From an uncultured Acidobacteriota bacterium (GTDB lineage: Bacteria; Acidobacteriota; Terriglobia; UBA7540), in assembly GCA_963804995.1 (NCBI GenBank), contig CAWDSK010000003.1:800001-864000 (forward strand): a stretch of DNA of 64,000 bases, read 5' to 3'. Below the pieces are notes generated by a model that was not told the origin of the DNA, did no database searches, and saw only the letters and a list, made by a program, of their open reading frames with translations. Shown here in pieces: positions 9,089 through 15,274 of this stretch. How positions within the stretch are numbered: position 1 is the stretch's first letter; every line of letters starts with the position of its first letter. The position numbers and the translations under genes are program-made.

Positions 9089-9728
9089 CTGGTGTCATAT
9101 TACAGAAGTTTGCTCACCAAGTCTCTGACCTGTGCGGGTCATTCCGCAGCCCCGTCAGGGGCGTAAGATCGTAGCCCAGGGCGCAAGCCCGTAAGCGTTA
9201 ACCTAGCCCTCTCCGAGGGGAGAGGGTGGACCGCAGCCGGCGTACTCATCAGCCGGGGCGGGACGGGCCTACGCCCTCCGAAGGGGTACCTGGGAGCAGT
9301 AAACAAGTTCAGCTTCGGCCCGCAGGCGGGTGAGGGGTTACTTCGTCAGCTTCGCATCGCCTAAGGCCAATCCATTCAGCGCCAACCCACTGGAAATTCA
9401 CACCCAGCCCACGCCGGGAACTCGCATGTAATCGTTTTTTTCTGCCGCGTCTTTTCCCATCTGAATCGGCTGTGAGTGGATACTTCTGAATTGCCCACCG
9501 GAAGTAACCCCTCACCCGTCGTGCTCCGGCTGGTGAAAGCGCCGGCAGCCCGCCACCCTCTCCCCTCGGAGAGGGCTATGAATTCGAGTCCCACTCTCCT
9601 CGGAGTAAACTCAAATTAAGTCCCCGTCGGTCACCAGCGGCGGGCCCCCCTCTGTCGCCGCGGCGACAGAGGGGCCGTTGGTGAGGGGGTTCTCTAATAA
9701 TCAGCGAACTTCTGACTCTAGGCACTAG
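9089..9728. mobile_element. composite non-autonomous (MITE-like) element filling the intergenic region
   Basis: Imperfect terminal inverted repeats CTGGTGTC-N6-CAGAAGTTTGCT (9089) / CTAGTGCC-N6-CAGAAGTTCGCT (reverse, 9728); inside are a 78-bp inverted pair (9204-9344, 9501-9578) and nested micro-insertions. Confidence 0.6.
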
Positions 9729-12828: not shown

Positions 12829-12882
12829 ATCGGACTTGCCAAAATTTCCCCCCATTGTGTGGGCAGCGACCTGCGGCGCTTA

Positions 12883-12990
12883 CTCCCCTCCTGATTTAGG
12901 AGGGGTGGCGCCGAAGGCGACGGGGTGGTTACCTCGCCCACCAAATGGCGAGGTGAACTCGCCGCTACAGGATCAAACTGAACCACCACC
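12883..12990. repeat. cluster of palindromic repeats (CCCCTCC..GGAGGGG hairpin; GTAG REP with TCAAACTG..CACC end)
   Basis: CTCCCCTCCT-GATTT-AGGAGGGG; TGGCGAG-GTGAA-CTCGCCG-CTAC followed by an end similar to 62310-62327. Confidence 0.6.
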
Positions 12991-13132
12991 GAATCCTTCA
13001 ACCCCGTTTCACAATCCCCAGCCGTGGTGTAGACTCTTAACGTCCCGAAAACAAATTGTCGTCCGATTGAGTAGTGGGACACATCCAGACCATCAACTCG
13101 GACAAACCACCATATCAACGAGAGGAGTGGCC

Positions 13133-14056
13133 ATGGCCAGATCACCGGAGGAGTTACGAACGGGGTTGCGAGGAATGTTTGCCTTCCCCGTGACACCCTT
13201 TACCACTGCTAACGAGGTGGATGTCAAGAGATTCAGGGAGCATCTGGCCTATCTGATCGAGGCGCGCCCGGCTGCGCTCTTTGTGTGTGGGGGAACGGGT
13301 GAGTTTGTTTCGCTCGATCTCGAGGAATACCGTGCCCTGGTCAAAGCCGCCGTGGCGGAAGCCGCCGGCCGGGTTCCCGTCATCGCGGGTGCAGGATACG
13401 GCGTCAAAATCGCCATCCAATTTGTGCAGGCTGCCGAGGAAGCGGGAGCGGACGGCGTCCTGGTGTTGCCGCCCTATCTTCTGCAATCCGAGCAGGAAGG
13501 ATTATTCGCTCACTACCTCGCCGTTGCCCAAGCCACCCGCTTGGGAGTAATCGTTTATCAAAGGGACAACGCCATCTTCTCTCCCTCCACGGCGCGCCGC
13601 TTGACGGAGATTCCCAACCTCATCGGCTTCAAGGACGGTCATGGAGATATGGAACGCCTCACCCGCATTCGTCTCGCGGTCGGTGACCGGTTCGCCTTCA
13701 TGAACGGTATGCCCACGGCGGAGCTCTCCGCTCTGGCCTTCTTCGGATTGGGAATTTCGAGCTACTCCTCGGCCGTCTTCAATTTCGTGCCGGAGATATC
13801 GCACGCCTTCTTTCGAGCCCTCAACGCTTCCGATATGAAAGGGGTGGGCCACCTGGTTGAAACCTTTTACCGCCCCCTGGCCGAGCTGCGGGAAAAGAAG
13901 AAGGGTTACGCCATCGCGCTGATCAAAGCCGGAGTGAACATCCTCAAAAAGCCCGTCGGCAAGGTTCGGCCTCCCCTGGTTTACCCTTCCCCGGCTGAAG
14001 AGGCTGAACTGAAGACCATCATTGAGAAGGGACTCGCGGCTCTATCTGCAAAATAG
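13133..14056 (+). CDS. kdgD: 5-dehydro-4-deoxyglucarate dehydratase (DHDPS family)
   Basis: FPVTPF, GGTGEF, LPPYL, IVYQRDN, GFKDGHGD, GMPTAE, YSSAVFNF, GYAIALIKAG, VRPPL. Confidence 0.9.
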   Translation: MARSPEELRTGLRGMFAFPVTPFTTANEVDVKRFREHLAYLIEARPAALFVCGGTGEFVSLDLEEYRALVKAAVAEAAGRVPVIAGAGYGVKIAIQFVQAAEEAGADGVLVLPPYLLQSEQEGLFAHYLAVAQATRLGVIVYQRDNAIFSPSTARRLTEIPNLIGFKDGHGDMERLTRIRLAVGDRFAFMNGMPTAELSALAFFGLGISSYSSAVFNFVPEISHAFFRALNASDMKGVGHLVETFYRPLAELREKKKGYAIALIKAGVNILKKPVGKVRPPLVYPSPAEEAELKTIIEKGLAALSAK

Positions 14057-14060
14057 AAGC

Positions 14061-14201
14061 GTGGGGGCACCCCTTGTGGGTGCCCGGAAGTCGGCCCCGC
14101 CGACGGGGAGGGCAGGCACGACCCGTCGCCCGAAGGCTTTGGCCCTGCCATCCGAAGGCTTTGCGCCGTAGGATGGACCCAAGGGCGAGGCCAGCCCCTA
14201 C
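14061..14201. repeat. GTAGGGGC-type REP pair with nested micro-insertions
   Basis: GTGGGGGCACCC..GGGTGCCC and AGGGCAGGCACGA[insert]CGAGGCCAGCCCCTAC between convergent kdgD and fba. Confidence 0.7.
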
Positions 14202-14248: not shown

Positions 14249-15274
14249 TCAGGCGGCGCGCTTCTGGGCATACCGTGCTGCCATTTCAGACAAGGGCAGC
14301 GGCGCGTAATCACCGGCATGGCCGGCCTGCCCGAACTGCGTCATGCGCAACGCCACAACCTTCTTCATCGCCTCGCGGGCAGGCTTCAGGTAGCTGCGGG
14401 GATCGAACTCCTCAGGCTTCTCGGCGAAGACCTTGCGGATCGCGCCGGTAATCGCCAGGCGATTGTCCGTATCCACGTTGATCTTGCGCACCCCGTTCTT
14501 GATGCCCAGTTGGATTTCCTCCACCGGAACTCCCCAGGTGGGCTTCAACTTGCCACCGTACTGATTGATGACGTCCTGGAGATCCTTGGGGACGCTGGAC
14601 GAGCCATGCATCACCAGGTGAGTTTTCGGCAGGAGCTTGTGGATCTCGATCAGGCGGTCCATTTTCAGTGTTTCGCCCGTGGGCTTCGAGCTGAACTTGT
14701 AAGCGCCGTGGCTGGTGCCGATGGCGATGGCCAAAGCGTCCAACCCCGTGAGCTTTACAAACTCGGCAGCCTGGGCAGGGTCGGTGAGGTGGCTCAGACC
14801 GTCAAGGCCCGCGCCGTGGCCGTCTTCAATGCCGCCCAGACAACCGATTTCGCCCTCCACCGTGATCCCCTTGGCATGGGCCATCTCCACCACTTCCCGC
14901 GTGACCTTAACGTTATAGTCAAAGGTGGAGGGCATCTTGCCATCAGGCATCAGCGACCCATCCATCATGACGCTGGTGAAGCCCAGGTCGATGGCGGACT
15001 TGCATGTCTCCACGCTGTTGCCGTGGTCCAGGTGCAACACCATGGGGATCTCCGGGTAGAGTTCCGCCGCAGCCAGCATGAGGTGATAGAGGAATTTGTC
15101 CTGGGAGTAGCTGCGCGCGCCACGGCTGGCCTGCACGATGACAGGCGATTTGGTTTCTCGGGCAGCCTCCATGATGGATTGGATCTGCTCCATATTATTC
15201 ACGTTGAAAGCACCGACTCCGTAGCCACCCTTGGCAGCTTCGTCCAGTAACTGACGCATGGAAACAAGAGGCAT
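14249..15274 (-). CDS. fba: class II fructose-bisphosphate aldolase
   Basis: [61 protein letters not shown]. Confidence 0.96.

Follow-up and report, generated by a model that had tools for sequence, protein, structure and literature searches.

Nested micro-hairpins in a REP pair of an uncultured Acidobacteriota genome belong to a family of tailed units linked to a small GIY-YIG nuclease

Introduction

To our knowledge, mobile DNA of less than 40 nt has been recognised since the small dispersed repeats (SDR) of cyanobacteria, but without an enzyme. The repeats SDR1-8 of Nostoc punctiforme, reportedly presented by Elhai and co-workers in 2008, are said to be 21-27 nt long, with the mobiliser unknown.

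SDR5 is described as inserting precisely between bases 3 and 4 of HIP1 (PMC4390886). The Ssn site-specific single-stranded DNA nucleases (cd10448) were described together with NTS/SRM hairpins (Chenal et al. 2025, PMC11893778). According to the main text of that paper, SsnA binds to its repeat and makes its cut a few bases upstream, the activity demonstrated being cutting and not joining, and the authors liken the arrangement of nuclease and hairpin to IS200/IS605 and REPs. A link between CGTC-type repeats and GIY-YIG genes is already published there, and the main text contains no mention of tRNA or of movement of single hairpins (PMC11893778). For IS608, insertion is described as taking place 3' of a guide-paired tetranucleotide that is retained in the left flank (PMC5934647).

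Results

The nested insertion and its host repeat

The window analysed is a stretch of 64,000 nt (G000:C3:800001-864000) from genome G000, which comprises 7.55 Mb in 9 contigs; bare coordinates refer to the window, and those elsewhere in the genome are given with the contig. The locus lies between two convergent metabolic genes, one of the dihydrodipicolinate synthase (DHDPS) family (12836..14056, plus strand; PF00701, E 3.9e-58) and one for a class II fructose-bisphosphate aldolase (14249..15274, minus strand; PF01116, E 5.9e-97). Neither flanking gene is a mobiliser, in agreement with the sequence-only reading, which had placed no mobilising enzyme in the window, and the locus itself has no adjacent GIY-YIG gene.

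The host is a REPIN-like REP pair of the GTAG type, its tag here being GTGG, with the first arm at 14061..14085 on the plus strand, followed by a small spacer hairpin of 6 bp (14090..14104, no strand assigned). The second arm, on the minus strand, is split into a left part (14109..14121), which ends in the target 3-mer CGA within the hairpin loop of the arm, and a right part (14189..14201), which carries the GTAG tag on the minus strand. An outer unit on the plus strand separates the two parts and is itself interrupted by an inner unit of the same orientation. The 5' part of the outer unit (14122..14143) contains a CCCG tail, a 5' stem arm that is complementary to CGA over its first three bases, and a loop up to the target TGG, with an extra C at 14143. 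Its 3' part (14177..14188) closes with the right-hand CGA, which is the 3' arm of the unit's own stem. The inner unit of 33 nt (14144..14176), placed by its fold, by the covariance model R1 introduced below and by a sibling at C6:1912127, consists of an unpaired CCTG tail, a 6-bp stem whose 5' arm starts with CCA and whose 3' arm ends in TGG, and a loop. It folded at -8.3 kcal/mol (z -3.0) with its first four bases unpaired.

The two copies of CGA (14119-14121 and 14186-14188) and of TGG (14140-14142 and 14174-14176), the inner 31-mer at 14143-14173 and the core shared by both units were all found where the sequence-only reading had put them. That core of 12 nt starts at 14130 and 14152, 22 nt apart; the window contained two exact matches and one with a single mismatch, against a shuffle mean of 0.49, and three matches were reached in 2 of 100 shuffles. 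The boundaries first drawn were kept in part only: the insert is real, but the units are better drawn as 33 nt including the right-hand 3-mer (14144-14176 for the inner one), which makes the C at 14143 surplus, the sibling outer units being 33 nt long. One contig of public run X6 (depth 2) reads across 14143 without this base, and the single extra C may be a sequencing error.

Related contigs in three runs leave the window sequence at 14120-14121 and continue as an empty arm, and one contig of 151 nt, identical to 13971-14121, stops at the insertion point, which is not probative. Among the public runs, none spans the whole locus or shares more than 0.10 of its words; the reads contained no joint skipping a unit, and the matches listed included no RNA dataset with the locus. 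The 3' flank of the aldolase gene was different in 18 of 18 genus genomes examined by eye, with no orthologous empty site there.

Empty, singly filled and nested copies

Counted with short patterns, the host REP arm occurs in G000 in 7 empty and 5 filled copies. In the empty ones, for example C1:189075, C3:506896, C6:1494562, C2:726719 and C6:411354, the left part runs straight into the right part. Two copies (C5:799258 and C6:1910901) carry one 33-nt unit at the identical base and are uninterrupted siblings of the outer unit, while three are nested (the window, C6:1912106 and C6:2099500), with the same site and different inner units. This coexistence of empty, singly filled and nested hosts bears out the nested family of hairpins of about 30 nt that had been proposed from the window. 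The near-identical inner unit on another contig (C6:1912127) differs by a compensatory stem change. The tRNA-end subtype described below is represented by the nested copy at C6:2099485, which links the nested-REP and tRNA-end contexts within one genome.

A scan of G000 for the unit architecture gave 50 matches, nine of them of 40 nt or less, and all nine repeated the terminal 3-mer on the left (six directly, three with one extra base). The controls gave 5 matches in the reversed genome and 1, 4 and 3 in three block shuffles, none with a left repeat; the genome-wide pattern search against shuffled sequence, which had been put forward as a check, thus came out in favour of the family. All unit sites of G000 show a full 3-mer match to the target, and 44 of the 96 perfect-stem matches in the genome have a left repeat. 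At C6:1703314 the 3' arm agrees with the target at 4/4 bases and the pairing of the 5' arm is incomplete, which fits a true duplication. Only about 7 sites in G000 represent independent insertions, since filled hosts went on to multiply: the outer units are all at one site, and so are 40 copies of the long form.

In addition, a search for insertions in repeated 22-mers produced 951 candidates, mostly tandem heptamer arrays, and the window locus was absent among the listed matches of 24-36 nt; a search with one other repeat pattern gave 0 matches. Many arrays of 7-nt tandem repeats of several sequence types are present in the genome (e.g. C3:962066, C6:1444651 and C9:32697). More nesting was seen at C6:1703293-1703349, C6:1878097, C6:1878198 and C3:223784, where one unit lies inverted within another and units of 35-36 nt have CGC as their target and lie in a different REP. 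Another family with the CCTG tail, about 24 nt long and with a loop of the form TGAGC...CGAA, occurs at C3:1136886, C6:1708065, C9:47505, C3:1169094 and about 20 more places, and enters other repeats, sharing 0-1 base with them. At loci L037, L118, L130 and L138, foreign units of 30 nt sit inside members of this second family.

Anatomy of the unit and its long form

The unit has the form CC(T/C)G - X1X2X3X4 - CC - loop - GG - X4'X3'X2'X1', with a length of 30 to 36 nt, or 63 nt in the long form. Its 5' tail of 4 nt is unpaired and its stem reaches the 3' end, so the two termini do not carry inverted repeats. The unit is tagged with CCTG or CCCG, neither GTAG nor CGTC. For TGG, CGA, CGC and CCG in G000, the apparently duplicated 3-mer has its reverse complement directly behind the tail of the unit. 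At the gathering score, six loci tested against Rfam matched no family except tRNA.

The long form in the window (9264..9326, minus strand) has a CCTG tail, a 5' arm that complements its target CCG and a variable middle, and lies in an abundant palindromic repeat. The resemblance noted earlier between the nested units and an insert at 9268-9326 is therefore one of architecture, on the minus strand. Short patterns found the host repeat filled in 40 copies and empty in 268. The 37 full-length copies, including 9264-9326, are of 36 distinct sequences with fixed ends and a highly variable middle, all at one host site. Taken as a whole, there is little doubt that the unit and its family are real.

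Foreign copies and their junctions

To find the 30-nt sister form in other genomes, a pattern of 26 nt was used, in which X1-X4 and both flanks were left free. The sister form was found elsewhere at no fewer than 121 genome loci and at 4 viral loci, and these 125 listed copies were analysed. The 80 titles among the listed matches cover about a dozen phyla, including Verrucomicrobiota, Patescibacteria, Bacteroidota, Alphaproteobacteria, Acidobacteriota, Planctomycetota and Nitrospirota. The exact pattern of the 33-nt subtype was confined to G000 among 401 genomes of the phylum, and the 30-nt sister pattern was present in 6 of 61 relatives and in 4 viral contigs.

In 97 of the 125 listed copies, X1-X3 (bases 5-7) complement the last three bases of the unit (permutation mean 32.1, maximum 46), while the last three bases equal the left flank in 15 (mean 4.2, maximum 11). 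Excision of exactly 30 nt restored a local repeat, a period or a sister unit at 27 loci; with other lengths between 22 and 38 nt, the number was 3-13. The background of this looser junction test is about 7 loci for each length, and a strict test with an exact 10-mer retained 1 locus. In the 27 clean insertions, the number of terminal bases common to the left flank was 0 in 6, 1 in 16, 2 in 4 and 4 in 1. Since 26 of these insertions have no more than two terminal bases in common with the left flank, the unit carries its own 3' arm in.

In 102 of the 125 listed copies, X1 pairs (Watson-Crick or G-T) with the last base ahead of the insertion, compared with 82.9 +/- 3.1 expected. In the same copies, pairing at X2 was not above chance (49 vs 46.8), and that at X3 (34 vs 25.4) and X4 (69 vs 57.2) was weak. 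The targets of the listed copies lean to Y-N-R^W-G. They also modestly favour hairpins, a stem of at least 6 bp being present at 13 of 125 targets and at 20 of 785 control positions. The idea that the units insert into other palindromes is upheld by the REP loop and the palindromic repeat hosts of G000, with this modest preference among the foreign copies. An I-TevI-like CNNNG target motif was rejected as evidence (32 of 125, against about 27 from single-base frequencies).

The enrichment of a gene family next to the copies, from which the sequence-only reading had hoped to nominate a mobiliser, did not appear: within 700 nt of the 125 listed dispersed copies, no gene family occurred in more than two loci, and a simple GIY-YIG motif had no match. 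Six of the 125 listed copies adjoin a tRNA as the tRNA-Ser copy of G000 does. At L133, a foreign unit is apparently in frame within a gene, which we take to resemble a polyprenyl synthetase.

The tRNA-CCA home and the linked nuclease

One unit of G000 adjoins tRNA-Ser(CGA), and the end of the unit is the CCA of the tRNA; at tRNAs, CCA is supplied by the unit's own end. No GIY-YIG motif was found behind the unit of this G000 copy. Among 27 genus copies of tRNA-Ser(CGA), 7 have the unit (5 by regular expression, 2 by eye) and 20 are without it. In relative G009 (locus L010), tRNA-Ser, several units and a small GIY-YIG gene (PF01541, E 2.8e-12) stand in succession. Homologues of this gene were collected from 80 metagenome and 12 genus loci (92 in all), and the removal of 8 with less than 150 nt of flank left 84.

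A tRNA end lies within 400 nt upstream in 66 of the 84 L010-type loci. The leader opens with a unit at a tRNA-like CCA in 69 of the 92 loci, followed by another CCA in 62. The unit was present at 58 of the 84 loci and at 1 of 14 loci of a control GIY-YIG group, the homologues of G000 C6:1226286, with a background of 0.004 per locus; (C/T)GTC-type repeats showed the opposite distribution (1 of 84 and 11 of 14), so that the published association with CGTC-type repeats was seen again in the control group. The home of the unit is thus the left end of a tRNA-CCA cassette that encodes a single-domain GIY-YIG nuclease. Most of these GIY-YIG loci are 70-89% identical to the query, and as they are close kin, a single inherited event may account for the linkage between unit and nuclease.

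Head-to-tail arrays of 30-nt units lie between the tRNA end and the GIY-YIG gene at L166, L162 and L156, which suggests repeated insertion at one site or rolling-circle copying, and the arrays of L166 and L162 fix the same unit ends. Covariance model R1 was made from 35 of 38 distinct leader units (those of at most 38 nt), none of them from G000. Its best match in the window was the inner unit, at a modest 18.8 bits (E 0.05). Genome-wide, with 150 candidates scored, it found C6:1912127 (E 0.002), C6:1703314 and C6:1730138, and the window copy was absent.

In the linked nuclease, Y3, Y15, R25 and E61 are near-invariant and are putative catalytic residues, with roles assigned by analogy. The protein is 27% identical to the Ssn-like protein of G000, gave a sub-threshold GIY-YIG match only in NCBIfam, and was separated from the (C/T)GTC-linked group in a tree (93/85, a value on which the bootstrap had not settled). 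G000 contained 0 close homologues of it at E<=1e-8.

Further small GIY-YIG genes were observed. At C6:1992743-1993460 (L140 and L141), two such genes stand in tandem behind tRNA-Val(GAC). Each of them is terminated by a repetition of the tRNA 3' end, and the first contains an early stop codon; this pair is distant and joins the L010-type group on a long branch (97/73), and is a possible distant mover in trans. At C6:1226286-1226591 (L139), a small GIY-YIG gene, probably an Ssn relative, lies amid (C/T)GTC-tagged hairpin repeats. Homologues with about 40% identity in G005 and G020 (L233 and L234) have a different hairpin leader behind a tRNA, which suggests further pairs of nuclease and hairpin. 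About 25 tRNA genes are densely packed at C5:1304904-1309125, an arrangement seen in some phages or islands.

Discussion

Nature of the repeated 3-mer and rival explanations

The sequence-only reading had attributed the flanking 3-mers to target duplication by a staggered cut. This part of it did not hold: the 3-mer is complemented inside the unit, a left repeat accompanies 15 of the 125 listed foreign copies, and 26 of the 27 clean insertions are without one, so that staggered-cut duplication is unlikely. The right-hand 3-mer is probably the unit's own 3' stem arm, and choice of the target by pairing with the foot of the hairpin fits better.

A true duplication of 3-4 nt by a staggered cut, with the 5' arm rewritten later by hairpin (quasi-palindrome) correction, is nevertheless the rival that survives best, though we consider it unlikely. 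It would account for the repetition of the 3-mer in all nine short copies and the long form of G000, for the rare stems without a need for matching donors, and for C6:1703314 and C6:1730138, where the 3' arm equals the left flank at 4/4 bases, better than the pairing of the 5' arm. It does not agree with the 26 clean foreign insertions that carry the whole 3' arm in with 0-2 shared bases, or with the listed foreign copies ending in A, of which 21 of 53 follow G, and it requires a second correction step everywhere plus another mechanism for the sister copies.

Units could also be moved by peel-and-paste by an HUH transposase (Y1, RAYT or IS200/IS605-type) guided by X1-X4; the GIY-YIG cassette would then only carry or exploit the hairpin. 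The geometry would be IS608-like, with the target kept in the left flank, a target-like element end and guide pairing (PMC5934647); unit hosts are REP pairs, and G000 has 14 Y1 matches. The nearest of these, however, is at least 36.6 kb away for the 9 units tested, no unit was seen by eye in the listed Y1 flanks, no Y1 family recurs near the 125 listed foreign copies, and the guide of IS608 is described as lying 5' of the hairpin, not in the stem (PMC5934647). Such a transposase is rather improbable as the mover.

Host recombination, repair or template switching between palindromes, with passive multiplication of units by the REP pair, would need no dedicated enzyme. Most G000 copies do ride in multiplied hosts at about 7 sites, and G000 has no linked nuclease. 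The precise ends of the 30-nt form at unrelated targets in about a dozen phyla, its presence or absence at one tRNA within the genus and its strict linkage to one nuclease group make this explanation quite doubtful. Local slippage, tandem duplication or an assembly artefact, to which the 12-nt core occurring twice 22 nt apart and the lack of a public run across the whole locus might point, can be dismissed as extremely improbable, because the inner unit has only 12 of its 33 bases in common with the outer one and the other 21 recur in the near-identical unit on another contig, with empty, single and nested forms coexisting in the paralogue series and the X6 contig crossing 14143.

Proposed mechanism

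The explanation that we prefer, and to which we give an even chance as a whole, is that of non-autonomous units made of a tail and a hairpin, with mobility linked to the GIY-YIG nuclease and targeting guided by pairing. It starts from the observed unit boundaries, the empty, filled and nested series, the covariation of the hairpin, the location at tRNA ends and the linkage to one GIY-YIG group. The L010-type GIY-YIG protein is slightly favoured as the mobiliser of the units. Like SsnA on its repeat, it would bind the single-stranded form of the tailed hairpin, and it would free or copy the unit. The unit would then be joined 3' of an exposed single-stranded target, such as a hairpin loop, a tRNA end, a tandem repeat or another unit, and the last one to four bases of the target would replace the 3' arm of the unit by pairing with X1-X4. 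Host polymerase and ligase may complete the event, as joining by a hydrolytic GIY-YIG enzyme is assumed to proceed via host ligase or polymerase. A good match would produce a short direct repeat (all G000 sites) and a loose match none (most foreign copies). The history of the window would be the entry of a unit into the REP loop, its carriage along with the REP pair and the insertion of a second unit. Against this mechanism, no unit with one of the rare stems (TCG, GCG and CGG) was seen at other sites as a donor. The zero count of close nuclease homologues in G000, the failure of any gene family to recur beside the listed dispersed copies, the chance-level pairing at X2, the kinship of the GIY-YIG loci and the modest R1 score of the inner unit also speak against it.

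A more specific version is tentative and may well not be correct: a stand-alone GIY-YIG protein of 80 residues would mobilise a DNA transposon of 30 nt with a single hairpin. The foot of the transposon's stem would choose the target by pairing, the native target would be the tRNA CCA end, and three or four base changes could re-aim the element. No description of a GIY-YIG transposase was found in the literature examined. If this version is true, it would represent a new transposition chemistry, would be among the smallest pairs of enzyme and element, and would offer a candidate answer to the question of what moves SDR-like repeats.

Significance

With this analysis, a family of very short mobile units has exact ends, a stem-target rule, a tRNA-CCA home and one linked small nuclease, which turns the question of the mover into a direct oligonucleotide assay. 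A second nuclease group for tailed hairpins, with another tail, would widen the SsnA-type toolbox even if it only cuts, and if the nuclease also inserts, a minimal and possibly re-aimable integration system would be available. The family also contributes to an explanation of the short insertions that occur in genes and repeats of many uncultured phyla. The evidence added here is that the nested REP micro-hairpin and the leader hairpin of the tRNA-end GIY-YIG genes are the same unit, together with the stem-target rule; mobilisation of the units by the linked nuclease we infer, and close analogues are already in print.

Comparison with known systems

In the open-access literature, with coverage of the main text of PMC11893778, whose supplements contain many variants of the hairpin, no paper was found on the CCTG-tailed unit or on the tRNA-CCA GIY-YIG cassette. 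The units had been offered as candidate undescribed elements; this stands narrowly, since both units of such small size (SDR) and pairs of hairpin and GIY-YIG gene (Ssn/SRM) are already published.

The SDR resemble the unit as very short mobile repeats with precise entry into other repeats, empty and filled sites having been seen for the unit. The unit measures 30-36 nt, and 63 nt in the long form, as against the reported 21-27 nt of the SDR, from which it was set apart by their description. Unlike SDR, it has a spread over about a dozen phyla, a stem foot that matches the target, a tRNA-CCA home and a linked GIY-YIG gene.

The Ssn/SRM systems share with the unit cassette a single-domain GIY-YIG protein of about 80-100 aa beside a short oriented hairpin with a conserved 5' tail, as given in the main text of PMC11893778. 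The tail is CC(T/C)G in the unit and HGTC in SRM (PMC11893778). The SRM pattern, which is strict and matched only 3 of 14 Ssn-like loci, was found in 0 of 125 listed units, nowhere in the window and in 0 of 84 linked loci.

The REPs of GTAG and CGTC type (Di Nocera 2013, PMC3733652) and the REPINs and RAYTs (Bertels and Rainey 2011, PMC3116915) are described as palindromes of 20-40 nt with an unpaired tag of 4 nt, and like the unit system they have inverted dimers and adjoin the gene of a dedicated nuclease. The unit differs in a third tag, CCTG, which has 0 occurrences in the text of PMC3733652, and in the insertion of single units alone, also into REPs. The enzyme linked to it is GIY-YIG, compared with the HUH enzyme of REP/RAYT.

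The end of IS608, like that of the unit, resembles the target, which is read by base pairing in IS608 (PMC5934647) and would be so in the unit. The unit has one hairpin, no transposase gene, the guide in the stem, loose pairing and no linked HUH enzyme, in contrast to IS608 as described there. MITEs are likewise non-autonomous, small and structured (Delihas 2011, PMC3184786), but the classical ones are given as about 100 nt or more (MITE-like elements from 67 nt) and bear inverted repeats at their termini and direct repeats in their flanks (PMC3184786). In the unit, the tail is asymmetric and duplication is mostly absent, one of constant length being present only in G000 (9/9). In summary, the unit is like the SDRs in its mobility and like a tagged REP or an Ssn-related motif in its build, and it falls outside each of them where tested.
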